Notes: a model not told the origin generated them from the sequence alone. 64,000 nt of DNA from Campylobacteraceae bacterium (GCA_012519705.1 JAAYPR010000051.1:423-64422); one strand, 5' to 3'. Shown: positions 4,149-18,438, counted from the first letter of the stretch. Made by a program: numbers and translations.

Positions 4149-5210
4149 ATGAGAATTTCAGTTTTACCAGTTGTTTCAGGACTTATCATAGGCGTTATCG
4201 CTTCGCTTCTTATGTATCTTGGAAACCCAGGAAATATGGGTTTTTGCGGTGCGTGCTTTCTAAGAGATATAAGCGGTGCGTTAGGGCTTCATAGAGCGGC
4301 TATCGTTCAGTATCTAAGACCTGAGATTATAGGGCTTGTGCTTGGTGCTTTTGCTTCAGCACTTTTGTTTAAAGAGTTTCGTCCGCGTGGTGGTTCGTCG
4401 CCTTTGATGAGATTTTTCTTAGGTATGTTTGCAACCATTGGGGCGTTAGTGTTTTTAGGTTGTCCGTGGAGGGCGTGGATAAGGCTAGGTAGTGGGGATT
4501 TAACCGCTATTGCTGGGCTTTTAGGGCTTTTTACAGGCGTATTTGTAGCTATACAGTTTCTAAAAAGAGGCTATAGCCTTGGAAGAAGTAGAAGCGTGAG
4601 CAAATTTGAAGGCTTACTAATGCCTATTTTTATGGCTGTTTTACTTTTCTTTCTTTTAACAAAGTTTAGCTTTGCCGAAAATGGAGCTATTTTCTTCTCG
4701 CAAAAAGGTCCAGGAAGTATGCATGCAAGCGTGGCTATATCGCTAGGTGCTGGACTAATCATAGGGGTTTTAATCCAAAGATCAAGATTTTGCACGATAG
4801 CTGCCTTTAGAGATACAGTTTTGTTTAGAGATACTCACTTGCTTCAAGGAGTTTTAGCTCTATTTGTTGGGGTTTTAGTTACAAATTTAGTCCTAGGACA
4901 GATAAATGTGGGCTTTGTTAATCAACCAGTCGCTCACAATGACGCGGTTTGGAACTTCCTTGGTATGATGTTAAGCGGTATGGCGTTTGCCTTAGCAGGA
5001 GGGTGCCCAGGAAGACAGCTAACTCTAAGTAGCGAAGGCGACGCGGACGCTGGGGTGTTTATTTTCGGGATGATAGTTGGGGCTGCTGTTGCTCATAACT
5101 TCTCACTTGCTTCAAGTGGAGCAGGGATTGGGGCGTATGGTGCACATGCGACTATTATAGGGCTAATTTTTTGTTTGGTTTTAGGCTTTTGTGCTAGAGT
5201 TAAGGAGTAA
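4149..5210 (+). CDS. yedE: YedE-family putative selenium/sulfur transporter
   Basis: GNPGNMGFCGACF, GCPWR, RSRFC and GGCPGRQ motifs of YeeE/YedE proteins; next to a TusA-like gene. Confidence 0.88.
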   Translation: MRISVLPVVSGLIIGVIASLLMYLGNPGNMGFCGACFLRDISGALGLHRAAIVQYLRPEIIGLVLGAFASALLFKEFRPRGGSSPLMRFFLGMFATIGALVFLGCPWRAWIRLGSGDLTAIAGLLGLFTGVFVAIQFLKRGYSLGRSRSVSKFEGLLMPIFMAVLLFFLLTKFSFAENGAIFFSQKGPGSMHASVAISLGAGLIIGVLIQRSRFCTIAAFRDTVLFRDTHLLQGVLALFVGVLVTNLVLGQINVGFVNQPVAHNDAVWNFLGMMLSGMAFALAGGCPGRQLTLSSEGDADAGVFIFGMIVGAAVAHNFSLASSGAGIGAYGAHATIIGLIFCLVLGFCARVKE

Positions 5211-5213
5211 GAG

Positions 5214-5426
5214 ATGATAAGTGTGGATGCGATAGGACTTTCTTGTCCAGAACCGGTTATTAGGATAAAAAACGCTATTGACACTGGCGAAAAAGAGATA
5301 GAGATAAAAGTTAGCGTTGGAGCTGCTGTTGAAAACACTCAAAGAATGGCAAAAAGCCAAGGGTATGCTCTTGTTAGCAAAGAAGAGAGTAACGGCGTCG
5401 TAACGCTAAGGTTTGAAAAGCCGTGA
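5214..5426 (+). CDS. TusA/SirA-family sulfur/selenium carrier
   Basis: VDAIGLSCPEPVI (CPxP motif), 70 aa. Confidence 0.88.
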   Translation: MISVDAIGLSCPEPVIRIKNAIDTGEKEIEIKVSVGAAVENTQRMAKSQGYALVSKEESNGVVTLRFEKP

Positions 5427-6538
5427 TCTATCTAGACAATGCCGCTACTACTTACCCAAAGCCAGAGTGTGTGAAAAACGCACTTTTAGACTTTATGCAA
5501 AATTGTGGTGCAAATGCTGGCAGAAGCGGTCATGCGATGTCTATAGATAGCGGTAGAGTTGTATTTGAAGCAAGAAAAAGCTTAGCGGATATGCTTGGCA
5601 TCAAGCATCCAATGAATGTAGCCTTTACTTTAAATGCAACTCACGCTCTAAATTTAGCCATCCAAGGCGTTGTTAAAAAGGGCGATGTCGTGGTGACTTC
5701 ACCCTTTGAACATAACTCTGTAAAAAGAGTTTTAAACGCTTATGATGGTATAGAAATAAGAGTTTTGAAAACCGATAAATTTGGACATTTGGTTGACGTT
5801 AAAGAAAGCTTAAAAGGTGCAAATGTTGTTATCCTAGTTCACGCTAATAACGTCTCAGGCATGATACTTCCAGTAGATGAAATTTTTAAACTCGCTAAAG
5901 AAAATGGTGCTACTACCATACTTGACGCTGCTCAAAGTGCTGGGGTTTTGGATATATCTACAAAGTATACTGATATAGTTTGTGCTAGTGGGCATAAGGG
6001 GCTTTATGGCATTCAAGGAACTGGATTTATAGCCTTAAGTGATAAATTTGACATCTCAAAGATAAAACCACTTATGCAAGGCGGTACTGGAAGTAAATCT
6101 GAGCATGAAATTCATCCAAACTTTATGCCTGATATGCTTGAAGCTGGGACTTTAAACGCTCATGGAATCGCTACTGTAAAAGCTGGGATAGAGTTTATAA
6201 ATAGTCTAAAAAAAGATGAGATTATAAACCATGAAAGGGAGCTTAGGGAGTTTCTAAGAAGTGAGCTTTTAAAAATGAGTGAGTTTAAAATTTTAGAAGT
6301 TCCGCCAAGCTATGAAACGATAGGAAATTTAAGCTTTACTCATGAAAGGCTTAGTCCAAGTGAAATTTCTCTTAAGCTTAATGAAAAGGGCTTTTGTGTT
6401 AGAGCCTCACTTCACTGTAACCCAGGCACACATAAGTTTTATGGTACTTCGCCAGATGGGGCAGTTAGGGTAAGTCCGGGGTACTTTACAACCTTAGAAG
6501 AGATGGAAAGTTTGGTTTCTGTTTTGAGAGAAATTTAG
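5423..6538 (+). CDS. Class V aminotransferase, cysteine desulfurase/selenocysteine lyase-like
   Basis: IYLDNAATT, DAAQSAG, SGHKG (PLP Lys), RASLHC catalytic Cys. Confidence 0.9.
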   Translation: MIYLDNAATTYPKPECVKNALLDFMQNCGANAGRSGHAMSIDSGRVVFEARKSLADMLGIKHPMNVAFTLNATHALNLAIQGVVKKGDVVVTSPFEHNSVKRVLNAYDGIEIRVLKTDKFGHLVDVKESLKGANVVILVHANNVSGMILPVDEIFKLAKENGATTILDAAQSAGVLDISTKYTDIVCASGHKGLYGIQGTGFIALSDKFDISKIKPLMQGGTGSKSEHEIHPNFMPDMLEAGTLNAHGIATVKAGIEFINSLKKDEIINHERELREFLRSELLKMSEFKILEVPPSYETIGNLSFTHERLSPSEISLKLNEKGFCVRASLHCNPGTHKFYGTSPDGAVRVSPGYFTTLEEMESLVSVLREI

Positions 6539-6550
6539 CAAAGGATTTAA

Positions 6551-6790
6551 ATGGATAGCGGATATATACTTTTTGCTACAACAGCAGCAGCTTTTATGGT
6601 TGAGAGTGTTTTAAAAGAGAAAAACATAAAAGTTAAGCTAACACCAACGCCTAGGTTTTTATCAAGTGATTGCGGGATAAGTGCTTACTTTTGGGATGTA
6701 GAGCCGAGTTTAGTAAAAGAGCATTTAGAAAAGCTAGATACTTATTTTGAAATCATAGAACACAAAGATGAGAGTTTAGAGAAAAGATAA
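6551..6790 (+). CDS. DUF3343-like small protein
   Basis: LFATT.AAF..E..LK...PTPRFLSSDCG pattern; typical yedE-operon context; AAGGA RBS. Confidence 0.75.
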   Translation: MDSGYILFATTAAAFMVESVLKEKNIKVKLTPTPRFLSSDCGISAYFWDVEPSLVKEHLEKLDTYFEIIEHKDESLEKR

Positions 6791-6805
6791 ACTCTCATCT
6801 TCTTT
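6767..6805 (+). terminator. Intrinsic terminator-like hairpin ending the yedE operon
   Basis: GATGAGAGTTTA (6767-6778) / TAAACTCTCATC (6788-6799) followed by TTCTTT. Confidence 0.55.
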
Positions 6806-6892
6806 AAAATTAAAACTTCTTTTTATTCATTAAAATAACATATTTATAACAAAAAAATCTTTAATTAATACACCCCTTTTTTAAATTCAAAT

Positions 6893-6976
6893 TGATATTA
6901 AAACTCACTTTATATTTAGTTTCATTTAAGAGATATTTATGTATAATCTTTGTATAAATTTTGATTGTAGATATCA
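6893..6976. promoter_or_regulatory. Two weak Fur-box-like sites upstream of the Fur-family gene
   Basis: TGATATTAAAACTCA (6893-6907) and TGATTGTAGATATCA (6962-6976) vs the 7-1-7 consensus TGATAATNATTATCA; AT-rich background lowers specificity. Confidence 0.35.
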
Positions 6977-6999
6977 ATATATAAAAGCTATATAAAATA

Positions 7000-7461
7000 A
7001 TGAAAATTAAAACGAGTGAATTTAAAATGGAAGATAAAAATAGAACTTTTAACAAATTTATAAACATTGTCTTTGGAGAAGGCAAGAAAACATCCATCCC
7101 ACGCTATGAAGTTGCAAAAATTCTTTTTTACAACAAACATCTTAGTGTTAATGAAATTCAAGCTCTCTATGAAAAAACGCAAAAAACACCCATTAGCCAA
7201 AGCACTATTTATCAAGTTATAAACCTGCTTGAAGAGTGTAGCTTCATAAAAAGTATGGATATAAATGGAGTTATCAAGTATGAGCTTGACGCAGGACTTA
7301 GGCATGACCATTTATACTGTACGGAGTGTGGGAAGATAGTTGAGTTTATGGATGAAAAAATTATAGAAATAGAACAAAATATTGCAAAAGAACACGGGTT
7401 TAACCTTAGTGGGCATATCTTGCTATTAGAAGGGATTTGTAAAAAATGTCAATCACAATAA
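7000..7461 (+). CDS. Fur-family transcriptional regulator (alternative start 7027)
   Basis: SQSTIYQVINLLEE HTH, RHDHLYCTECG and C-terminal CKKC metal sites. Confidence 0.9.
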   Translation: MKIKTSEFKMEDKNRTFNKFINIVFGEGKKTSIPRYEVAKILFYNKHLSVNEIQALYEKTQKTPISQSTIYQVINLLEECSFIKSMDINGVIKYELDAGLRHDHLYCTECGKIVEFMDEKIIEIEQNIAKEHGFNLSGHILLLEGICKKCQSQ

Positions 7462-9617
7462 AATCAAATATAAAAAACAGAGTTAGGTTAAAATCATCTC
7501 TTTTTCAAGATGGAAATTACGGGGTTTTAGAAGAGCTTTTGAGTGATAAGGTAGTGGCTTTGAGAATGAACTCAGCCTGTAACTCGCTCATTATAAACTA
7601 CGATAGTAGCGTTGTAAGTTTAGATGAAATTTTAGAAGAGATAAACTTACTTTTTCACACTAAAAAAGAGCAAATTTTAGAAAATATCACCTCAAATAAA
7701 AGCTGTGATATCTGTAGTAGTTGTCACATCGAAAAATATAACCCAAAAAGCTTTAGGCTTAGACTTTTAGAGTTTGGATTTTTAAGCGTTGTAGCGGTTG
7801 TTGTCTTTGTAAAAGAGCATATTTTAGACACCGCTTTTAGTGTGGCTGGGAATATTTTTCTAGGAAGCGTTAGCGTTATAGCAGCACTCCCGCTTCTAAA
7901 TGACGCTAAAAACGACATCGTAAATAAAAAGTTCACACTTGAAACATTTATGTCATTTTCACTTCTACTAGCCATCTTTGGTGGCGAGATAGGTGCGGCG
8001 TTTGAAGTTATCTACATCCTTAGAGCATCAAAACTTTTTGAAGAGTATCTAGCAAATAAATCAAGAACCGAGATAAAAAACCTTATCAAAATGGAGAAGA
8101 AAAAACTCTTTGTTTTAAGAGATGAGATTGAAATTGAGATAGATTTAGAAGATGTTGCTAAGGGCGACACGGCTGTTTTTGTAAGCGGGGAGCAAATCCC
8201 AGTAGATGGGGTTATCATAAAAGGTGATGCACTAATAAATGAGTCCATTATAAACGGACACAGCCAAGCGATTCATAAGAAAAAAGATGATGAGGTTTTT
8301 GCAAACACCATAGTTGAAGAGGGGAGAATTTATGTTAAAGTTTTAGCCGTTGGCGATGAAACTTATATCTCAAGAGTTGTAAATGATGTTGAAAAATATC
8401 TTAGTTTAAAATCCCCAAGCGAAGTTATGGCAGACCAGCTTGCTAGAAAAGTTCTAAGACTTGGGACATTTTTAACTATCTCTACGCTTTTACTAACTGG
8501 CTCTTTTGCAAATGCTTTTAGTGTTATGATAGTGATGAGTTGCCCGTGTGCTACGATTTTAGCGGCAAGTTCGGCAGTTAGTTCAGCTATAGCAAGTGCA
8601 GCTAAGAGTGGTATTTTAATCAAAGGCGGGGAGTATTTAGAAAACGTAAGCAAGGCTGATGTGTTTTGCTTTGACAAAACAGGAACTTTAACGACTACAG
8701 AGCCGCAAGTTGTAGGGCATTATACAAATTTAAAAGAAGATGAGTTTTTGCAAGTTTTAGCAAATTTAGAGCACAAAAACACTCATCCGATAGCAAAAGC
8801 TATCTTAAAATACTGCGATGATTTGGGTTATACGCCAAAAGATGACGCTCTTGTATGTAACATCATAGGACTTGGTGTTGAGTGCGGTATTGATGGAAAC
8901 AGCTACTCTTTAGGAAGCAAGAAATTTATCCAAGATTTAGGCGTCAAAGTTCCAGCAAACTCGAAATTTATAAAAGAAAACTCTCATAACACCGTAGTCT
9001 ATCTAGCTAAAAACTCAAAATTTGCAGGAGCTGTCTCTATCATCCATAAAGTTAGAGATGGTAGTAAAGAGGCTATTTTAGAGCTTAAAAAACGCGGTGT
9101 TAAAAAGATAGTTTTACTAACTGGCGATGATGAAAAAGTAGCAAATGAGTTTGCAAAAGAGTTTGAATTTGACGCTGTTTATCCAAACCTTATGCCTGAT
9201 GAAAAAGCAAAAATCGTTGAAGAGCTTTCAAAAGAGTCGCGTGTCGTGATGATAGGGGACGGCGTAAATGACACCTTAGCTATGAGTAAAGCTGATATAG
9301 GGATCTCTTTTGCAAGTGGTGGAAGTAAGGCGGCCGTTCAAGTCTCAAATATAGCTATAACAAACTCAGACCCACTAGACATCGTAAGGCTTTATGATTT
9401 AAGCCAGTTTGCTCTAAAAGTGGCTAATCAAAACTACCATATAGGAACATCTACAAATATAATCGGTTCTATTTTAGCGTTCTTTGGTAGGATCACGCCA
9501 GCTGGGGCAGGGCTTGTTCATATAGGGCATACATCGCTTATTTTAGGTAACTCAAGTAGGGTAAAAATAGATGATAAAACCTATGAAATAGAAGACATCA
9601 AAGAAGAAAAAGCATAA
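7446..9617 (+). CDS. Heavy-metal P1B-type ATPase with SCPC motif (candidate FezH-like second ATPase)
   Basis: N-terminal HMA-like domain, CDICSSCH linker, MSCPC in TM4, DKTGT, HPIAK, GDGVND, C-terminal VHIGHT. Confidence 0.88.
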   Translation: MSITIKSNIKNRVRLKSSLFQDGNYGVLEELLSDKVVALRMNSACNSLIINYDSSVVSLDEILEEINLLFHTKKEQILENITSNKSCDICSSCHIEKYNPKSFRLRLLEFGFLSVVAVVVFVKEHILDTAFSVAGNIFLGSVSVIAALPLLNDAKNDIVNKKFTLETFMSFSLLLAIFGGEIGAAFEVIYILRASKLFEEYLANKSRTEIKNLIKMEKKKLFVLRDEIEIEIDLEDVAKGDTAVFVSGEQIPVDGVIIKGDALINESIINGHSQAIHKKKDDEVFANTIVEEGRIYVKVLAVGDETYISRVVNDVEKYLSLKSPSEVMADQLARKVLRLGTFLTISTLLLTGSFANAFSVMIVMSCPCATILAASSAVSSAIASAAKSGILIKGGEYLENVSKADVFCFDKTGTLTTTEPQVVGHYTNLKEDEFLQVLANLEHKNTHPIAKAILKYCDDLGYTPKDDALVCNIIGLGVECGIDGNSYSLGSKKFIQDLGVKVPANSKFIKENSHNTVVYLAKNSKFAGAVSIIHKVRDGSKEAILELKKRGVKKIVLLTGDDEKVANEFAKEFEFDAVYPNLMPDEKAKIVEELSKESRVVMIGDGVNDTLAMSKADIGISFASGGSKAAVQVSNIAITNSDPLDIVRLYDLSQFALKVANQNYHIGTSTNIIGSILAFFGRITPAGAGLVHIGHTSLILGNSSRVKIDDKTYEIEDIKEEKA

Positions 9618-9621
9618 AATA

Positions 9622-9636
9622 TGATAATGAGTTTCA
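9622..9636. promoter_or_regulatory. Fur-box-like site before the internal promoter of the metal cluster
   Basis: TGATAATGAGTTTCA, two mismatches to TGATAATNATTATCA; TATAAT at about 9690-9695 downstream. Confidence 0.55.
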
Positions 9637-9709
9637 AAAGTTTTTAAGTCAAATTTAAAATTTGCTACGTAATAATCGTTCGCGAAATTATAATGAAAGG
9701 ATAAATTTA

Positions 9710-10048
9710 GTGGAAATAACAACCAAAGATGTTTTAAGAGTCATCTCATACTGCTCTTTAATCCATCACATTAACGGCAGGCTTAGAGTAAGAGTTAGCC
9801 CGTCTATAAAAAAAGAACTAAATGGCTTTAGTAAAGCTGAGATAGAAAGTTACGGGCATGAAATCAAGTCAGCCATTGAGAACTTTAGCGGTATAAAAAA
9901 CGTTAAGGTTAATAAAAAAGTCGCCTCTGTTACCATCGAGTATGATAGTGAAATTTTGCCAAAAAGCTTTTGGGATGATTTGCTAAATGGCAAAAACGCA
10001 GATGAGGCGGTTGTGAAATTTAATCAACTTATAAAGGAGAGTGCATGA
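9710..10048 (+). CDS. HMA2-like domain protein (GTG start; ORF-track start 9662 probably too long)
   Basis: AAGGA RBS then GTG at 9710; IHHINGRLRVRV and IKNVKVNKKVASVTIEYD HMA-like pattern without CxxC. Confidence 0.75.
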   Translation: MEITTKDVLRVISYCSLIHHINGRLRVRVSPSIKKELNGFSKAEIESYGHEIKSAIENFSGIKNVKVNKKVASVTIEYDSEILPKSFWDDLLNGKNADEAVVKFNQLIKESA

Positions 10049-10680
10049 GTTTAGGAAAAGCTGTTTCTTACGAAGAAGAAGGGATAGCGATGTATAGTGA
10101 CTTTGCATCTAAATTTGAAAACCCAGTTTTTGGTCAAATTTTAGCGATAAAAGGGGCTGGTTTAAACCTACTAAAAAATGCCAAAGATGTGGAGTTTGAA
10201 GCTAAAAAAGAGGGCTTTGACTTTTCAAATATAAAAGATGAGAAAGATGCTATCTTCACAGCTCTATCTTACGAGATAAGAGGCGAGAAACTATACAGCG
10301 AGTTAGCAGCAAATGAGGAAAATGAGGGTTTAAAAGACCTATATTTTAGAATTTGGGCAACTTCTGTAAATGAATATAAAGAGGCTTTAAAAGGCTCACT
10401 AGAGGGAGCAAAGACAGACAAAGAAAGCCACGAAGATGAAAGTAGCGAGAGCAAGCAATCTCAAAACTATAAATATGACAAACATCTAAATCCAAATGAT
10501 ATGGGTTTAAATCAGCTAAAAAGCTTAAAAGATAGTTTTGATAAGTTTAGCAGTGGAACAGCGACGGTTGATGATGTAAATAGCATACTTCAAAACCCAA
10601 GTTTTTCGTTTGTTTCGGGGGCGTTAGTAGGTGCTTTAGGCGGTGTTTTTATAAATCAAATTTTAAAAAAGGGAGAGTAA
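10045..10680 (+). CDS. Ferritin-like domain protein with C-terminal GxxxG membrane segment
   Basis: Repeated A.SYE..G...Y helices, DLYFRIWATS, C-terminal FVSGALVGALGG. Confidence 0.7.
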   Translation: MSLGKAVSYEEEGIAMYSDFASKFENPVFGQILAIKGAGLNLLKNAKDVEFEAKKEGFDFSNIKDEKDAIFTALSYEIRGEKLYSELAANEENEGLKDLYFRIWATSVNEYKEALKGSLEGAKTDKESHEDESSESKQSQNYKYDKHLNPNDMGLNQLKSLKDSFDKFSSGTATVDDVNSILQNPSFSFVSGALVGALGGVFINQILKKGE

Positions 10681-10684
10681 AATT

Positions 10685-11008
10685 ATGCCAATTCCAGTTT
10701 TTGTAGCAGGTTTAGCAGTAGGTGCAGGGTTAGTTGTAGCTTATAATAACAAAGATAAAATCAAAGAAAGTATTGTAAGCGGAGTTGAAAAAGGAAAAGA
10801 TTTAGCAAGTGATGCTAAAGAAAAAGTTTGCAAAAGTAAAAAAGATGAGTGCCCTGAATGTGTAGAGGCAAAAGAGGCTGAGTGTAAAGAAGTAGAGGCT
10901 AAAACAGAAGCTAAAACTGAATGCAAAGAAGAAGAGCCAAAAGCAGAAACCAAAGCAGAGCCAGCTAAAGCAGAGCCAAAAAGCACTACCAAAAAGGAAG
11001 CTAAATGA
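10685..11008 (+). CDS. Small protein with N-terminal GxxxG helix and Glu/Lys/Cys-rich tail
   Basis: FVAGLAVGAG; tail CKSKKDECPEC...EAEC...TEC; GGAG RBS. Confidence 0.7.
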   Translation: MPIPVFVAGLAVGAGLVVAYNNKDKIKESIVSGVEKGKDLASDAKEKVCKSKKDECPECVEAKEAECKEVEAKTEAKTECKEEEPKAETKAEPAKAEPKSTTKKEAK

Positions 11009-11316
11009 TGTTTAAAACTTCAACTAGCAGACTGCCAACAGATCACTTTATAAGTGGAGCGTTATTTGGCGGTATGAGTGCGGCGGCTTTTGAGTTTTAT
11101 GGTAAAGATAACGACACAGCTACAAAAGTAAAAAATATCTCTAAATTTGCACTTCAAGGTGGCATAGCAGCATATCTTTCAATAAGTGCATCAAACAAGT
11201 TAGTTCAAAGAGATTATCTAAGAGCTGGTGTTGATATAGCTTTGGGTGCTGGACTTATCATAGCAACTGAGAAAATATTAAAAACTAAAAAAGTAGAAGT
11301 AAAAGAGGTAAAATGA
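11005..11316 (+). CDS. Small membrane protein with GxxxG motifs
   Basis: FISGALFGG and ALGAG; start and stop overlap the neighbouring genes. Confidence 0.72.
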   Translation: MMFKTSTSRLPTDHFISGALFGGMSAAAFEFYGKDNDTATKVKNISKFALQGGIAAYLSISASNKLVQRDYLRAGVDIALGAGLIIATEKILKTKKVEVKEVK

Positions 11317-11597
11317 CAAATCCATACATTAAAAAAGTAGAAGAAAAAAATAGTATTACATTAGATAAAGCGGTGGAGAATAGCACAAACTCTGTTCTTT
11401 TTCCAAATTTCAGCTATAGCAACTTTATCCAAGGAGCACTACTTGGAGCGGGTGCTGCCTACATCCTAACAAATGAAAAAGCCCAACAAGCTATATTTAA
11501 ATCAGTTGTTAGAGTTGGAAAGCTTTTTGAGGCTGGAACTGAGGAGCTAAAAGAGAGATTTGAAGATGCAAAAGCAGAAATTGAAGCCGAAGGCTAA
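11313..11597 (+). CDS. Small GxxxG protein directly upstream of the P1B-6-type ATPase (FezA-like position)
   Basis: FIQGALLGAGAAY followed by an amphipathic charged helix. Confidence 0.72.
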   Translation: MTNPYIKKVEEKNSITLDKAVENSTNSVLFPNFSYSNFIQGALLGAGAAYILTNEKAQQAIFKSVVRVGKLFEAGTEELKERFEDAKAEIEAEG

Positions 11598-13653
11598 TCT
11601 AAAAGTAGTTCATAAAAGCAAAAATAGAGTTAGATTTATCCACTCAGGTCTTGATAAAAATAGTGATGTCGGGGCTTTTATAGAAAGAGTTTCAAACATA
11701 GATGGTGTTAAAAGCGTTAGAGTGAATAAGGCTATCCAAAGCGTGACGATTATCTATATTTTAGATAGTTATAGCTCTATTTTAGATGAAATTTCAAATT
11801 TAGAAGTTCCAAAGTTAAAAAGCGTTGATGAGGTAAGTAAAGCCCCTATTTATAGAGCTGGGGCGGCACTTGCTTTAATGCCTTTTATAGATAACAATAA
11901 CGCAAATAGCATAATTAGCTTAGTTGCAGCTTATCCGCTTTTAAAAGATGGTTTAAAAGAGCTTCTTAGCAGTGGGCTTACATCTGAAGTTTTAGAAGCT
12001 ATGGCGGTTGGAATTTCCCTATCAAGAAACGATTATCTAGCAGCAAATAGCACAAACTTGCTTCTAAATATCGGCGAATATATGGAAGAGACTACAACCC
12101 ATAAAAGCGATGACTTGATAAAAGCTTTAGCAAAACCTGGAGTTGAGAGTGCTTGGGTTGAAGAGAGTGCTAATGGTAAAGTTGAGCTTATAAAAAAACC
12201 AACAGATGAGATAAAAGTTGGCGATATCGTTGTAGTAGGAGCTGGTGAGACTATCGCAGTTGATGGGTATATCATAGACGGAAGTGCTAGTGTAAATGAA
12301 GCGTCCATGACAGGCGAGGCAACAAGTATCAACAAAAAGCACGGTGATAGAGCGATGAGTGGAACTGTCGTAGAAGATGGTAAGATAAAAATTTGGGCTG
12401 AGCAAACAGGTGCTGATACGAGTACTGAAAGGATTAGAAAATATATCCAAAACTCACTCAATGAACGCTCAAACGTAGGCGAAAAGGCAGAAGAGTTAGC
12501 TGATAAGCTAGTGCCTATAACTTTGTCTCTAGCTGGACTTGCATATTTTCTAAACAAAGATATGGCAAGCGTGGCTTCTGTTTTACAGGCTGATTACTCA
12601 TGTGCTTTAAAGCTAGCTACTCCAGTTGCTTTTAAATCAAGCATAGCAAAAGCTGGAAGAGAGGGAATCCTAATAAAAGGTGCAAAATCCTTGGAAGAGT
12701 TAGCTAAAGCTGATACTTTTGTTTTTGATAAAACTGGAACGATTACAAAAGGGATTTTAGAAGTTGTAGATGTGATAAGCTTTGATGAGAAGTGGAGCAA
12801 AGAAAGCGTGCTAAATTTAGCAGCGAGTGCGGAAGAGCACTATTTCCACCCAATAGCCGAAGCAGTTGTAAGTGCGGCAAAAAACAAAGGCTTTGAACAT
12901 ATGCATCACGGTGAAGTTGAGTTTATCGTAGCTCATGGGCTTAAAACTGAGTTTGATGGTAAAGAAGTGGTTATCGGAAGTAGGCACTTTTTAGAAGATG
13001 ATGAGAAAATCTCATTTGAGCCTTTTAGAGATGAGATAAAAACTCAAATAGATAGTGGATATACTCTTTTATATATCGGATACGATAAAAAGCTTTTGGG
13101 CATCATAACTATGAAAGATGAGATAAGAAGTAGTGCTAAAAAAACCATCTCTAAGCTAAAAAGTTTAGGAGCAAAAGAGATTATCATGTTAACAGGAGAT
13201 ATCGAAGAGAAGGCTAACGAAGTAGCAAACGAGCTTGGCATTGACAAAGTATATGCAAATATGCGTCCAACAGGCAAAGCAGAGGTTATAGATGAGCTTG
13301 TAAAAAGCGGTAGAAAAGTTGTGTTTTGTGGGGATGGGATAAATGACGCTCCATCTTTAAGTAAGGCAAATGTTGGTATCAGTATGAAAAGAGGTGCTGA
13401 TATAGCAAGGGCAGTTTCTGATGTGAGTCTTTTAAGGGATGATATTTACGCGGTTGCTATGGTAAAAGAGTTAGCTAATAAAACTCTAAATTTAGTAGAT
13501 AGAAACTTTAAAGCAACAGTTGCTATAAACTCAGGAATTTTACTAGGTGCGACGTTAGGCAGACTTAGTCCGATAGCTACAGCGTTTTTACATAACGGTA
13601 CAACGATAGGGCTTTTACTAAATTCAATGAAAGGTGTTAAAATTCAGCATTAA
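11566..13653 (+). CDS. fezB: P1B-6-type ATPase, FezB-like (start uncertain, 11560-11581)
   Basis: TM4 ADYSCALKLATP (SCA, not CPC), DKTGT, EEHYFHPIA, GDGIND, C-terminal LHNGTT; CxxC-less HMA N-terminus. Confidence 0.72.
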   Translation: MQKQKLKPKANLKVVHKSKNRVRFIHSGLDKNSDVGAFIERVSNIDGVKSVRVNKAIQSVTIIYILDSYSSILDEISNLEVPKLKSVDEVSKAPIYRAGAALALMPFIDNNNANSIISLVAAYPLLKDGLKELLSSGLTSEVLEAMAVGISLSRNDYLAANSTNLLLNIGEYMEETTTHKSDDLIKALAKPGVESAWVEESANGKVELIKKPTDEIKVGDIVVVGAGETIAVDGYIIDGSASVNEASMTGEATSINKKHGDRAMSGTVVEDGKIKIWAEQTGADTSTERIRKYIQNSLNERSNVGEKAEELADKLVPITLSLAGLAYFLNKDMASVASVLQADYSCALKLATPVAFKSSIAKAGREGILIKGAKSLEELAKADTFVFDKTGTITKGILEVVDVISFDEKWSKESVLNLAASAEEHYFHPIAEAVVSAAKNKGFEHMHHGEVEFIVAHGLKTEFDGKEVVIGSRHFLEDDEKISFEPFRDEIKTQIDSGYTLLYIGYDKKLLGIITMKDEIRSSAKKTISKLKSLGAKEIIMLTGDIEEKANEVANELGIDKVYANMRPTGKAEVIDELVKSGRKVVFCGDGINDAPSLSKANVGISMKRGADIARAVSDVSLLRDDIYAVAMVKELANKTLNLVDRNFKATVAINSGILLGATLGRLSPIATAFLHNGTTIGLLLNSMKGVKIQH

Positions 13654-13670
13654 GAAAGTGTTTTTAATGT

Positions 13671-13693
13671 ATAATGATACCAAATATCATTAT
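13671..13693. promoter_or_regulatory. Fur-box-like perfect 9-bp inverted repeat overlapping a -10 box
   Basis: ATAATGATA-CCAAA-TATCATTAT; overlaps TATAAT at 13670-13675; 14 nt upstream of ATG 13707. Confidence 0.7.
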
Positions 13694-13706
13694 ATAAGGA
13701 TTGAAA

Positions 13707-13928
13707 ATGCCATTTTTTATTTTAAACACAGTTTTATTTGCTGCAACAACGGTGATGACATATGATACAGTTACAAGATCAAAAGAGAAATTTGAACGAA
13801 GAAAAGCAAGAGAAGAAGCAAGAAAAAACAGAGCAAAAAGAGTTGAAGCAAGAGGGGTTAAAACAGGAAGCAACAAAGAAACAACCAAGCCAAGCTTTAA
13901 AAGAAGAGAAGAAAAAACCGCTGCTTGA
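13707..13928 (+). CDS. Small hypothetical protein, hydrophobic N-terminus and basic tail
   Basis: AAGGA RBS before ATG 13707; MPFFILNTVLFAATTVM; overlaps the next ORF in another frame. Confidence 0.45.
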   Translation: MPFFILNTVLFAATTVMTYDTVTRSKEKFERRKAREEARKNRAKRVEARGVKTGSNKETTKPSFKRREEKTAA

Positions 13929-14103
13929 TGATTTTACTAAAAAAGAACTTGCTAAGATAGGAATGACACTTTCTATGGGAACTTTGGTTTTAACATCATT
14001 TTCCCTAAAAAGTAAGCTTTCAAAAAACGCTCACATCATCTCAGGAGCGGCTTTGGTTGGCTTTTCATTTTGGCACAACTCACTTTACACAGATAAGAAA
14101 TAA
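13762..14103 (+). CDS. Small two-helix membrane protein (KKELAKIGM...WHNSLY) with charged N-terminal extension
   Basis: C-terminal half has two hydrophobic helices with His residues; GGTGAT SD-like sequence before ATG 13762; true start uncertain. Confidence 0.6.
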   Translation: MIQLQDQKRNLNEEKQEKKQEKTEQKELKQEGLKQEATKKQPSQALKEEKKKPLLDDFTKKELAKIGMTLSMGTLVLTSFSLKSKLSKNAHIISGAALVGFSFWHNSLYTDKK

Positions 14104-14137
14104 AACCTTATAGCTCTTTTTGGGCTTTAAGGTTTTT
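14102..14137. terminator. Hairpin between convergent operons
   Basis: AAAACCTTA.AGCTC / GGGCT.TAAGGTTTT. Confidence 0.5.
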
Positions 14138-14169
14138 ACTTTTTAGAAGTTTTAATTACAGTATAAAAT

Positions 14170-15399
14170 TTATAAACTCATCTGTCTTTTGGCATTTGAA
14201 AGCATCAGTTTTATTCTATTTTCTTGATTTACAGAGCTTTCACTAAAGTCATAGTCCACACAGCAGATATTTGCACTCTCGTGTTTTTCTTTTATTTTTC
14301 TTATCATTCCACGAGCGATTACGTGATTTGGCAAACACCCAAACGGCTGGGCACAGATGATGTTATCCACGCCTTTTTGTATAAACTCTACCATCTCAGC
14401 AGTTAGTAGCCACCCTTCACCCATTTTAACGCCGTGACTTATGTAGCCTTTGGCTGCTTTTCTTACCTTGCTATACGGAGTTGCTGGTTCAAACCCTGCT
14501 TTTTTGGTTAAGCGTATCAAAACTTTTTGCATACTTTCTAAAACAAAGGCAAAAACTCTTGATTTATAGTATTTTGCTGATAAAAAGCCGTAAATTTCCT
14601 TATCGTAAATGTTGTGATAGATAGAAGTTAAGAAAAAGTCCATAAGCCCTGTATTTAGAACTTCCGCACCTTCGCTGATGAGATACTCATTTAGGTTGTT
14701 GTTTCCAAGGGATGAGTATTTCATATAAATTTCACCAACTATACCAACTCTAACTTTTTTTTGCGACCTGTTAAGCTCTATTTTTTGAAAGCTTGAGAGT
14801 ATAAATTTAATGTTTTTTCTAAATTTATAAATCTCTTTTGAGTTTAGCTTTGGAAGCAGGACGTTTAGGCACTCAAAAGATACTCTTTTAGTCTCGCCCT
14901 TTTTTACCTCATAGCTAATGCACTGATTAAAAAGTGTCATAAAAAGGTCTGCGTAAAACACAGCTAAAATCAGCTTTATAAGTACCTTTTTTGAGAGATA
15001 AAAAGCGTTTTCATCAAGCTTATTAAAGTTTAGTGAAATTACCGGTACATAACCAAAACCGCTATCATTTAGAGCTTTTCTTAATAAAAATATATAGTTA
15101 CTCGCCCTACATCCGCCACCCGTTTGAGTCATGATAAGCACAACTTTTTTGGAGTCATACTCGCCACTTTTTAGAGCATTTAAAAACTGTCCTATGACTA
15201 AGATGGCAGGGTAGCACATATCGTTATGAACTGCTAGTTGCCCATGTTTTGAGATGTCCTCTTTTTTACCACCTAAAACTTCGGCTTTGTATCCCTCGCC
15301 CCTTAAAATTTCAGCCATAAGCTCGAAATGTGGCTCTATCATGGAAGGGATTAGGATAGTGTGAGTCTCTTTCATCTGTGGTTCAAATTTAGCAAACAT
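14170..15399 (-). CDS. 2-hydroxyacyl-CoA dehydratase-like (DUF2229/HgdB-related) subunit
   Basis: HNDMCYPAILVIGQ, TGGGCRASNY, QPFGCLPNH Cys motifs; translationally coupled to the activase. Confidence 0.8.
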   Translation of the reverse strand: MFAKFEPQMKETHTILIPSMIEPHFELMAEILRGEGYKAEVLGGKKEDISKHGQLAVHNDMCYPAILVIGQFLNALKSGEYDSKKVVLIMTQTGGGCRASNYIFLLRKALNDSGFGYVPVISLNFNKLDENAFYLSKKVLIKLILAVFYADLFMTLFNQCISYEVKKGETKRVSFECLNVLLPKLNSKEIYKFRKNIKFILSSFQKIELNRSQKKVRVGIVGEIYMKYSSLGNNNLNEYLISEGAEVLNTGLMDFFLTSIYHNIYDKEIYGFLSAKYYKSRVFAFVLESMQKVLIRLTKKAGFEPATPYSKVRKAAKGYISHGVKMGEGWLLTAEMVEFIQKGVDNIICAQPFGCLPNHVIARGMIRKIKEKHESANICCVDYDFSESSVNQENRIKLMLSNAKRQMSL

Positions 15400-18300
15400 G
15401 GGTTTCCTCTTTTTTAGTTTTTTCGCATTTTGTTATTTCACATTCTTCTTTTTCAGACTCTTGTTTTTCACATTTTTCTTTTCTGGCTTTTAAAATTTCT
15501 TGATTTTTCTTCTCTTCGATAGTGGCTTTTAAACTTCTAAGTCTGATTTTCACAGCACCTAAATTTGTTATCTCATCTATTTTTATCTGAGTATAAAGTT
15601 TATCATTTTTTCTTAATATATCTCTTACTTCATCGCTAGTTACAGCGTCTAGCCCACACCCAAAGCTAACAAGTTGGACTAAATTTAGGTTTTGATATCT
15701 GTTTACAAAATTTGCAGCACTATACATCCTAGCGTGATAAGTCCACTGGTTTAAAACAGTTGTTTTTGGTTTTTCTAGTGGCAGACTATCTTCTGTTAAA
15801 ACCGCAAAACCTAGACTGACGAGGTATTTATCGATGCCGTGATTTAGGTGTTTATCTATATGATAAGGACGGCATGCTAAGACTATCGCCTCGCTTTTGC
15901 TAGAGCTTATGAACTCTAAAATCTTCTCTCCTTCATCAAGGACTTTTTGTTTATAGAGTTTTAGCTCTTTTTTTGCCTTTTTTGCGGCATTTTCAAGCTT
16001 GTTTTTTCTAAATTTAAGACCAAGGCTTTCAAGTTCAGGCTTCATTGTCTTTATAAAAAACTTGATATCATCTATCCTAATATGTGGATATGAAAATTTC
16101 ACATCTTTTAGTCCGCTAATATTCGCTGCTAAAAGCTCTGGATAATACGCCACAACAGGGCAGTTGTAGTGGTTGTCTGAAATTTGCTCATCTATGTTGT
16201 AGCTCATACATGGATAGAAAATAATATCAGGCTTTTTTTCTAGTAAATCATAAATATGAGCGTGAGAAATTTTAGCTGGGTAGCAGACGGTGTCAGATGG
16301 CACACTTTGGGATGACTTGAAAACTATCTCTTTTTTAGGGTATTTAGAAACTATGAAATTTAGCTCTAGCTCATCAAAGAATTTATACCAAAAAGGAAGT
16401 AGTTCGTATGTGTTTAAAACAAACGGCATAGCGATAGTTGGGCGGTTTTTGTGACTATCTATTTTTTTATAACTTCTTAAAAGCTTGTTTTTAAAAGCCA
16501 CCATATTTGGTAGTTTGTTTTTAGTTTTTTTACCAGCCCCTAGTTCGCATCTATTTCCAGCGACAAGCTTACTGTCTCCAAAGTAGTTTATCGTTAAATG
16601 GCAGTGGTTGTTGCAAATTTGGCAGGTTTTAAGCTCTGTTTTATAAGTGAAGTTTTTAAGCTCATTTTGCGATATAAGAGATGAGTTTTTTATAGCGTTA
16701 TGTTTAGCGTAAAGTGCCGCACCATAAGCCCCCATTAAAGCACTTATATTTAGCCTTATAACTTCACTTCCAAGCTCCATCTCAAACGACCTAAGAACAG
16801 CGTCATTTAAAAAAGTTCCCCCTTGAACGACGATATTTTCGCCAAGTTCTTTTGGGTTTGAGACCCTGATAACTTTATAAATAGCGTTTTTTATCACGCT
16901 CATAGCAAGTCCAGCACTTATATCTTCTATCTTTGCACCATCTCTTTGGGCTTGTTTAACTGATGAGTTCATAAAAACTGTGCATCTACTTCCTAAATCA
17001 GCAGGGTTTTTTGACTTAAGAGCTAAATTTGTAAACTCTATCAAGCCATACCCTAAACTCTCAGCAAAGCTTTGTAGAAACGACCCGCACCCCGAACTGC
17101 ACGCCTCGTTTAAAACTATGGAATCAATTTGCCCATCTTTGATAGAAAAGCATTTTATATCTTGCCCACCAATGTCGATGATGAAATCAACGTCTTTATT
17201 AAAGTGCCTTGCCGCTGTGTAGTGAGCCACGGTTTCAACGATGCCAAAGTCTACTTTAAAAGCTGTTTTTATAAGCTCTTCGCCGTATCCTGTAACGGCA
17301 CTTGATTTTATGGTGATTTTATCTCCGATAAGAGAGTAAATTTCGGCTAATTTTTCTTCTACTATCTCAACTGGGTTTGCCTTATTTGGTGAGTAAAACT
17401 CATATAAAAGCTCGTTATTTTCATTTATAAGAACGATTTTTATGGTAGTTGAGCCACAGTCTATGCCTAAATACGCATCGCCACTATAGCTTTTAATATC
17501 GGCTTTTGAAACAGAGTTTTTATCATGCCTTGCTTTAAACTCTAGGTATTCGTTTTCATCTTTAAAAAGTGGTCTGTTTGATTTGTTTTCTTTAACGGGT
17601 GGTTCTTTTTCAAGGCGGTTTATAACTTCATCGATGCTACTAAATTTAGGGTTTTCCATAGCATAAAGAGCAGATCCATAAGCTACAAAATATGGTCCTA
17701 ACTCAGGGAAAATGGCACTATTTTCATTTAAGCCTAAATTTTCTACAAAAGCTTTTCTAAGCCCTTTTAGAAAGTAAAGTGGCCCACCTAAAAACAGCAC
17801 ATTTCCCTTTATCTCTCTACCTTGGGCAAGTCCTGTGACGGTTTGCTCTACCACAGCTTGAAAAATGCTAGCGGCTAGGTCTTCTTTTTTAGCACCTTGG
17901 TTTAAAAGTGGTTGAATGTCACTTTTAGCAAAGACACCGCATCTTGAGGCGATGGGATAGAGCTTTGTATGATTTAAACTAAGAGTGTCAAGTTCGTTAA
18001 GCTCCACGTCTAAAAGGCTTGCCATCTGGTCTATAAATGAGCCTGTTCCACCAGCACAGCTACCATTCATCCGCTCTTCTAAGCCGCCTGTTAAAAAGAT
18101 GATTTTAGCATCCTCTCCGCCTAGTTCGATAACAACATCGGTTTTAGGGTATGCTTTTTGAACGCCTATCGTGGTGGCAAAAACTTCTTGAACGAAATTT
18201 AGCTCACAGTGGTTCGCAAGCCCAAGCCCAGCTGAACCAGCTACAGCGATGCTAATCTCGTGGTTTTGAAGTTTATCTTTAATAGCGTTTAGTCTATTTA

Positions 18301-18424
18301 GTGCTGCTAAGCGTGGCTTTGCAAAATGCCTTTCATAGCTTTGTTCTAAAATATTGCAGTTTTCATCAAGCAAAACAGTTTTGATAGTAGTTGAGCCTAC
18401 GTCAATGCCCAAGTATAGTTTCAT
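15389..18424 (-). CDS. CoA-substrate-specific enzyme activase with tandem BadF/BcrA-type ATPase domains plus DUF2229-like domain
   Basis: Two GID.GSTTIK / GG.D.K / N..C..G.G / SRC.VF repeats, then CQICNNHC, VCYPAK, FGCGLD; start at ATG 18424 after GAGG. Confidence 0.87.
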   Translation of the reverse strand: MKLYLGIDVGSTTIKTVLLDENCNILEQSYERHFAKPRLAALNRLNAIKDKLQNHEISIAVAGSAGLGLANHCELNFVQEVFATTIGVQKAYPKTDVVIELGGEDAKIIFLTGGLEERMNGSCAGGTGSFIDQMASLLDVELNELDTLSLNHTKLYPIASRCGVFAKSDIQPLLNQGAKKEDLAASIFQAVVEQTVTGLAQGREIKGNVLFLGGPLYFLKGLRKAFVENLGLNENSAIFPELGPYFVAYGSALYAMENPKFSSIDEVINRLEKEPPVKENKSNRPLFKDENEYLEFKARHDKNSVSKADIKSYSGDAYLGIDCGSTTIKIVLINENNELLYEFYSPNKANPVEIVEEKLAEIYSLIGDKITIKSSAVTGYGEELIKTAFKVDFGIVETVAHYTAARHFNKDVDFIIDIGGQDIKCFSIKDGQIDSIVLNEACSSGCGSFLQSFAESLGYGLIEFTNLALKSKNPADLGSRCTVFMNSSVKQAQRDGAKIEDISAGLAMSVIKNAIYKVIRVSNPKELGENIVVQGGTFLNDAVLRSFEMELGSEVIRLNISALMGAYGAALYAKHNAIKNSSLISQNELKNFTYKTELKTCQICNNHCHLTINYFGDSKLVAGNRCELGAGKKTKNKLPNMVAFKNKLLRSYKKIDSHKNRPTIAMPFVLNTYELLPFWYKFFDELELNFIVSKYPKKEIVFKSSQSVPSDTVCYPAKISHAHIYDLLEKKPDIIFYPCMSYNIDEQISDNHYNCPVVAYYPELLAANISGLKDVKFSYPHIRIDDIKFFIKTMKPELESLGLKFRKNKLENAAKKAKKELKLYKQKVLDEGEKILEFISSSKSEAIVLACRPYHIDKHLNHGIDKYLVSLGFAVLTEDSLPLEKPKTTVLNQWTYHARMYSAANFVNRYQNLNLVQLVSFGCGLDAVTSDEVRDILRKNDKLYTQIKIDEITNLGAVKIRLRSLKATIEEKKNQEILKARKEKCEKQESEKEECEITKCEKTKKEETHVC

Positions 18425-18438
18425 TTTACCTCGCAAGT

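Follow-up and report, generated by a model that had tools for sequence, protein, structure and literature searches.

The question raised by positions 7000-14103 of the DNA presented above is whether a campylobacter carries a fez gene cluster and could thus build ferrosomes, i.e. iron-storage organelles. The window, which is the whole stretch of 64,000 nucleotides that was analysed, stems from a genome of 1.72 Mb and 99% completeness. Positions 7000-14103 hold eleven co-directional reading frames on the + strand, which are packed tightly or overlap and are all open. An original prediction, made from the sequence alone, had named a Fur-family regulator, two P1B ATPases, an HMA-like gene, a ferritin-like gene, three small GxxxG proteins and two more small open reading frames (ORFs) and had read them as a candidate fez cluster. 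All of these genes were found at their coordinates on the + strand, each described item is accurate, and so is the account of the ferrosome literature that accompanied them. Starting from the observed gene content, motifs, orthology, gene order, conserved operators and distribution, we assign a probability of about 75% to a ferrosome-type iron-storage function of the cluster, by homology to known systems.

The assignment is carried by FezB, the P1B-6 ATPase encoded at 11560-13653 (+, 697 amino acids (aa); alternative ATG at 11566). The protein matches TIGR01525 with 469 bits, and its catalytic motifs TGE, DKTGT, HP, TGD and GDGxND are all intact. A fez cluster is defined by a P1B-6 ATPase with D[Y/F]SCA and HNxxT, by R-rich motifs and by GxxxG proteins (Grant & Komeili, bioRxiv 10.1101/2020.01.10.902569), and every motif that defines FezB is present here (NRVRF, DYSCALK and HNGTT). 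DYSCALKLATP is located 34 residues upstream of DKTGT, and the last transmembrane helix bears LHNGTT, identical to the entries for R. palustris, Wolinella and C. ureolyticus. In place of a CxxC metal-binding domain the N-terminus exhibits the R-rich sequence HKSKNRVRFIH with an RxR motif, and Pfam HMA_2 matches residues 13-66 (7.1e-6). Kyte-Doolittle scans for a six-helix topology lacking the MA/MB pair gave only weak and ill-resolved hydrophobic segments; no structure of a FezB was found in the PDB.

For phylogenetic placement, a FastTree phylogeny of 150 proteins was labelled by motif. It used the best 150 representatives of a library clustered at 50% identity, to which the two other P1B ATPases of the genome as well as FezB and FezH from named loci were added. 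FezB nests in a group of 104 rows, 100 of which combine D[YF][SA]C with HNxxT, and a branch with 98% support splits the CPC-type pumps from this group. Its sister is the C. ureolyticus FezB (99% support). The related loci used for comparison were obtained by scanning genome contigs with FezB and comprise Campylobacterota only. Among named relatives, FezB is closest to C. ureolyticus with 74% identity, followed by C. blaseri (70%), C. corcagiensis (67%), C. sputorum (65%) and C. concisus and C. rectus (61-62%). Because these identities rank C. ureolyticus first, the source genome is assigned, on sequence grounds, to a Campylobacter species of the ureolyticus group other than C. ureolyticus itself.

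Orthologs of all ten ORFs were found in the same order, with 45-74% identity, in another strain of C. ureolyticus than RIGS 9880. The cluster of RIGS 9880 (Ga0081792_11405-11414) is catalogued in Supplementary Tables 1 and 3-7 of Grant & Komeili (2020) and consists of the same genes in the same order, Fur through group 3-3. In the accessible part of these tables, 11405 is listed as the fez-associated Fur, 11406 as FezH type (SCPCATI, HLAHT and SNLKDRVRLKSD), 11407 as R-rich group 3-1, 11408 as group 5, 11409 as GxxxG group 2-6, 11410 as group 4-3, 11411 as GxxxG group 2-1, 11412 as FezB (DYSCALK, HNGTT and HKSKNRVRFLQP, with HKSKNRVRF) and 11414 as group 3-3. The motif strings and protein lengths of the C. 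ureolyticus locus compared here are equal to those entries. The two loci differ at the end of the cluster: the small ORF has 73 aa in comparison to 44 aa in C. ureolyticus, and the last protein has a K/E/Q-rich N-terminal extension. By its sequence, the cluster is an intact, large-type fez cluster, gene-for-gene orthologous to the catalogued one, and an ordinary member of a known system.

The novelty implied by the original prediction does not hold. The C. ureolyticus ortholog and the FezB of many campylobacters were published in 2020/2022; the accessible supplementary tables list FezB for at least eight Campylobacter species, namely C. hominis, C. curvus, C. gracilis, C. ureolyticus, C. showae, C. 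fetus, C. sputorum and C. geochelonis (Grant & Komeili, bioRxiv 10.1101/2020.01.10.902569), and the searched portion of them has no entries for C. jejuni, C. coli and C. lari. As a finding of a genome scan, the cluster adds nothing to this catalogue. The C. ureolyticus cluster, in turn, is known from the catalogue only, by sequence.

A link to experiment is provided by R. palustris CGA009, where deletion of RPA2333-2338 abolishes ferrosomes. Its FezB (RPA2333) resembles the one described here in DYSCALK, HNGTT and the R-rich N-terminus, and the succession of the partners is collinear: FezB, 2-1, 4-2, 2-5, 3-1, 3-2 in R. palustris and 3-1, 5, 2-6, 4-3, 2-1, FezB here. In contrast to the campylobacter cluster, R. 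palustris has FezC (group 3-2, an HMA domain plus two transmembrane helices) and lacks both FezH and a group 5 ferritin-like gene. Here a gene of its own (3-3) encodes the part with two transmembrane helices, and the cluster additionally contains FezH, the ferritin-like gene and the Fur paralog. The six genes sputcn32_3193-8 of S. putrefaciens CN-32, which are necessary for ferrosomes and sufficient in E. coli, encode FezB, FezC, two GxxxG proteins, a soluble chaperone-like protein and a protein with two transmembrane helices. By description, these are the same classes of parts as here; a second ATPase and a ferritin-like protein are missing there. D. magneticus fezABC and C. difficile fezAB, both induced by iron limitation, are minimal clusters of two or three genes with a P1B-6 FezB and a small GxxxG membrane protein, the latter belonging to group 2-4 in D. 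magneticus compared to 2-1 and 2-6 here. With the motifs and clade of FezB, its GxxxG and R-rich partners and the collinearity with R. palustris, the original reading as a fez cluster is supported at every sequence feature named by Grant & Komeili.

In 80 related loci the genes recur in the same order, beginning with the fur paralog and ending with the last small gene, and the flanking genes vary between loci. The fez cluster moves as one unit between loci, and since its genes recur together and the flanks do not, 7000 and 14103 are the true limits of the module.

Hydrophobic GxxxG motifs are found in four consecutive genes (10045-11597), as FVSGALVGALGG, FVAGLAVGAG, FISGALFGG and FIQGALLGAG. 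The first belongs to the ferritin-like protein. The other three are from small proteins that share F[VI]xGALxG within a hydrophobic stretch. The protein encoded at 10685-11008 (+, Grant group 2-6) combines an N-terminal GxxxG helix (MPIPVFVAGLAVGAGLVV; Kyte-Doolittle hydropathy 2.14 for residues 1-19) with a charged tail and is kept in 11 loci; for its ortholog Ga0081792_11409 the motif PFIAGIAVGAGLIV is given in the accessible tables. FISGALFGG is part of a conserved 103-aa protein (11005-11316, +, group 4-3) with positional orthologs in all loci compared, the R. palustris protein RPA2335 being listed there as group 4-2. The 94-aa GxxxG protein at 11313-11597 (+) bears NFIQGALLGAGAAY and EELKERFEDAKAE; its NPYI, GxxxG and E..KER.ED are kept in 11 loci, and it shares group 2-1 with RPA2334.

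Downstream of fezB, a small ORF of 73 aa (13707-13928, +) encodes one hydrophobic helix (MPFFILNTVLFAATTVMTY) and a basic tail. Its N-terminus and K/R-rich tail are kept in 11 loci at lengths of 38-44 aa, and in another frame it overlaps the K/E/Q-rich N-terminal extension of the next gene. Its counterpart Ga0081792_11413 was not found in the searched parts of the Grant & Komeili protein groups. The next gene, at 13762-14103 (+), encodes a two-helix membrane protein with AKIGMT...H..SGAALVGF..H..LY, which is kept in 10 loci; its ortholog Ga0081792_11414 appears as group 3-3 in the accessible tables. Pfam and NCBIfam searches returned no match for either of these two ORFs or for any of the three small GxxxG proteins. 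In C. concisus-type loci (L003-L058, about 10100-11590) fezB and the group 3-3 gene are separated by an inserted gene for a 485-aa membrane transporter, and these loci are without the small ORF and its Fur box.

The soluble R-rich HMA-like protein (9662-10048, +) belongs to Grant group 3-1, as do, in the accessible tables, its ortholog Ga0081792_11407 and RPA2337. Matches to HMA_2 (4.4e-6) and HMA (2.2e-4) are both weaker than the Pfam cut-off. It bears HHINGRLRVRV, of which HH..GR[LI]RVR is invariant in 11 orthologs. The true start is probably the TTG at 9707 behind an AAAGGA ribosome-binding site, which would give 113 aa compared to 112 aa in the relatives.

The divergent, putatively DUF2202-type ferritin-like protein (10045-10680, +, 211 aa, Grant group 5) could hardly be recognised from its own sequence, as the only Pfam match is a negligible one to Rubrerythrin (E=0.06). 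A word-indexed protein search returned relatives at the level of C. ureolyticus only, none of them with a Pfam domain. We then aligned 16 positional orthologs taken from related loci, of which ten match DUF2202 (best 3.3e-8) and eight match Rubrerythrin. E10, E77, A105, S107, N109 and G192xxxG196 are invariant in this alignment, the latter in a C-terminal hydrophobic GxxxG helix. The AlphaFold2 model obtained from it exhibits a four-helix bundle (residues 1-127, predicted local distance difference test about 90 or more), a disordered linker and a C-terminal helix. The top PDB matches of the model in Foldseek are all ferritin-like, rubrerythrin or bacterioferritin chains, with weak E values of 0.02-0.1 and TM scores of 0.6-0.7. 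In the Campylobacter copies, AExxH of helix 2 has become K/R-x-x-G/A (IKGAG here) and NNH of helix 4 has become NEY, with E10 and E77 retained. Judging from these replacements, the Campylobacter protein is likely no longer a di-iron ferroxidase.

The regulator at the head of the cluster (7000-7461, +, 153 aa) is a fur paralog. It matches PF01475 (E=3.5e-24, 85.7 bits), contains HDH and two CxxC motifs (in RHDHLYCTECG and CKKC) and scores under every NCBIfam equivalog cut-off. The genome has four Fur-family genes, i.e. a Fur of 160 aa, a PerR-like gene, a Zur-like gene beside a ZnuA-like (zinc-binding) gene, and the cluster copy, which shares 40% identity over 103 aa with the main Fur.

The original prediction had also reported Fur-like boxes at internal promoters. 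Over the whole window matches to the Fur box are not enriched (10 found, 7.3 expected by chance). With the count at chance level, conservation of position across loci was used instead, and two of the sites, at 9622-9636 and 13675-13689, are conserved in this sense. The former is the half-site TGATAATGAGTTTCA, which is followed by TTTAAGT and TTTAAAAT in a conserved operator/promoter region (9622-9661, +). Allowing for one mismatch, TGATAATGA was found in 54 of 76 loci at a distance of 60-85 nt before the HMA gene, with TTAAGT and TTTAA behind it, compared to 83 of 1520 control windows, and the arrangement is common to Campylobacter, Sulfurospirillum and Arcobacter loci. The latter (13675-13689, +), TGATACCAAATATCA, is palindromic, resembles a Fur box and closely precedes the ribosome-binding site of the small ORF. 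At the equivalent place, downstream of fezB and directly before this ribosome-binding site, the palindromic TGATAnnnAnTATCA was found with at most two mismatches in 27 of 80 loci (control windows: 51 of 1600); several Arcobacter/Malaciobacter loci have copies with no or one mismatch. A third candidate, the inverted repeat TGATTGTAGATATCA at 6962-6976 (+), lies 24 nt upstream of the start of the fur paralog. With four mismatches to TGATAATNATTATCA it is the least secure of the three operators, and in the relatives the Fur-like boxes upstream of the fur paralog vary in position. Because boxes are conserved in position across loci, the comparison supports Fur-type control over two or three transcription units. 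This predicted control agrees with C. difficile, where the fez genes are Fur-repressed. Promoter and terminator scans did not rise above chance level, and an Rfam scan of 6500-14500 revealed no RNA elements.

Behind the Fur half-site, at 9637-9661 and at the same place in loci L001-L064, a pair of elements, TTAAGT-N5/6-TT(T)AA(G/A)T, is conserved. The pair amounts to a clear direct repeat of 10-11 bp in some loci (e.g. TAAGCTTCACTTAAGTGTCAC in L064). It could be the site of a second regulator or consist of promoter elements.

The second ATPase (7446-9617, +, 723 aa) is of FezH type and matches TIGR01525 with 431 bits. Its R-rich N-terminus NRVRLK (SNIKNRVRLKSS), MSCPCATI in the fourth and HIGHT in the sixth transmembrane helix agree with all features that characterise FezH, namely [AS]CPCAT[VI], H[IL]xH[TS] and an R-rich N-terminus; an NRVR motif thus opens both ATPases of the cluster. 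In the tree, FezH falls into a long-stemmed clade of seven rows (100% support) with MSCPC and H[IL]xHT, which contains FezH genes of related loci only. The transmembrane site of MSCPCAT and H[IL]xHT is kept in 120 FezH homologs.

The actuator loop of FezH differs from that of other pumps. At the TGE position the protein reads NGH (residues INESIINGHSQ), and all 120 nearest homologs have NG[RHYT] there (NGR in 115), compared to TGE in 137 of 140 other P1B ATPases of the same alignment. DKTGT, HP, TGD and GDGxND are intact. In P-type ATPases, the glutamate of TGES orients the water molecule for hydrolysis of the aspartyl phosphate; when it is lost from SERCA, dephosphorylation of E2P is blocked. 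Since this glutamate is needed for E2P dephosphorylation, FezH is expected to cycle very slowly or not at all. NGH together with the otherwise intact catalytic motifs suggests a phosphorylatable, non-cycling derivative of a pump. A tentative, rather doubtful extension of this idea would be that Campylobacterota FezH is not an ordinary pump but a slow gate, a sensor or a scaffold of the organelle; together with a ferritin-like protein that lacks its di-iron site and is used structurally, this would leave loading to FezB alone in the Campylobacter variant. The text of the Grant & Komeili preprint makes no mention of the loss of TGE, and literature searches for FezH or Mta72 returned unrelated papers only.

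FezB is widespread in the family. At E<1e-150, an ortholog is present in 73 of the 78 genomes examined for the genus and in 111 of 161 high-quality genomes of the family, the carriers belonging to nine of ten genera. One genus of small genomes is mostly without FezB and presumably corresponds to the C. jejuni group. FezH is much rarer at the same threshold (12/161 family genomes, 4/10 genera); it is absent from C. concisus-type loci and partly present in Arcobacter, Sulfurospirillum and the ureolyticus group.

Iron as the substrate, a vesicle as the location and storage as the function are what we infer for this cluster by homology to D. magneticus, S. putrefaciens, R. palustris and C. difficile, and the following sequence of events may be proposed. 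When iron becomes scarce, Fur-type repression would be lifted at the two conserved operators, i.e. before the genes from HMA to fezB and before the two last small genes. The repressor could be the Fur paralog of the cluster, the housekeeping Fur or both. The small GxxxG (glycine-zipper) proteins and the membrane-anchored ferritin-like protein would shape or mark an intracellular vesicle, and the R-rich HMA-like protein and the R-rich N-termini might gather the partners. FezB would pump cytoplasmic Fe(II) into the vesicle; there it would precipitate with phosphate and form a store on which cells could draw when growing anaerobically while starved of iron. FezH, which occurs in only 12 of the 161 family genomes, would be an accessory.

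Several points weigh against a ferrosome. P1B ATPases usually export metals across the cell membrane. The tree holds no experimentally characterised FezB, and the placement that the original prediction had proposed was therefore made by motif and through orthology to the catalogued, 74%-identical C. ureolyticus protein. A FezC-type fusion of HMA and two transmembrane helices is missing, the two parts being encoded separately. Of the presumed di-iron ligands (E, ExxH, E, ..H), the Campylobacter copies of the ferritin-like protein have lost half, which the Arcobacter and Sulfurospirillum orthologs keep, and the missing TGE loop makes a pump role of FezH doubtful. Further, no granule, transport or expression data for any member of the Campylobacterota were found in the literature searched, and in line with the original prediction no paper demonstrating ferrosomes in Campylobacter came to light. 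A rival reading is a Fur-controlled efflux or detoxification module in the cytoplasmic membrane, in which FezB, and perhaps FezH, would export Fe(II) or another divalent metal, the small proteins would serve as chaperones or pump partners, and no organelle would be formed. Both large genes are indeed bona fide heavy-metal P1B ATPases, the characterised relatives in the PDB are all exporters, and control by the Fur family is compatible with either direction of iron homeostasis. We nevertheless regard this main rival as unlikely, because the same FezB motifs and small-protein groups are needed for granules in four unrelated species, with one cluster being sufficient in E. coli, and because the genes follow one another as in the validated R. 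palustris operon. Moreover, it is not obvious what simple efflux would need four GxxxG proteins in a row and a membrane-anchored ferritin-like protein for.

The distinct transmembrane site of FezH, retained as MSCPCAT and H[IL]xHT in 120 homologs, and its restriction to 12 of 161 family genomes compared to 111 for FezB could also point towards a ferrosome-like compartment for another or a mixed metal. FezH, with its CPC and HxxHT sites, would then load a metal other than iron, and the variants that contain it would differ in cargo; a 2026 review poses ferrosome-like structures for other metals as an open question. An ATPase without the TGE loop needed for turnover is poorly suited for such loading, however, and the operators are of Fur type. 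Metal specificity cannot be read from sequence. We consider this explanation quite improbable, more so than efflux. Least of all would we expect a decaying or silent remnant without current function, for which the lost di-iron ligands and the lost TGE might be quoted: both losses are kept across many species and are not private to this genome, none of the eleven reading frames is interrupted, FezB has kept its catalytic motifs, and 73 of 78 genomes of the genus retain the cluster. A ferrosome-type iron store is accordingly the reading we prefer.

If it is true, a demonstration of ferrosomes in campylobacters would add a further phylum of host-associated bacteria to those known to form the organelle. 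Ferrosomes help C. difficile to withstand the withholding of iron by the host, and it is a question of the field which further bacteria of gut and mouth form them. The carriers, among them C. ureolyticus, C. concisus, C. rectus, C. gracilis and relatives, are non-jejuni species with anaerobic growth and emerging pathogens of gut and mouth. Possibly new are only the side observations: the FezH without TGE, which is of modest interest, the degenerate ferritin-like protein and the conserved operators may be candidates for undescribed details of the system.

Two neighbouring gene sets were considered as well. Directly upstream of fez, positions 4149-6790 encode a YeeE/YedE-type Sulf_transp protein, TusA, a class-V aminotransferase (cysteine desulfurase-like) and a Se/S carrier (PF11823), i.e. 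a four-gene set for sulfur/selenium trafficking. Downstream, at 14170-18436 on the - strand and convergent with fez, a 1015-aa double BcrAD_BadFG ATPase with DUF2229 (CoA-enzyme activase type) is followed by a 409-aa protein without Pfam match. Both the sulfur/selenium genes and the activase genes were rejected as cluster members, since none of them is kept beside fez in the 80 related loci.

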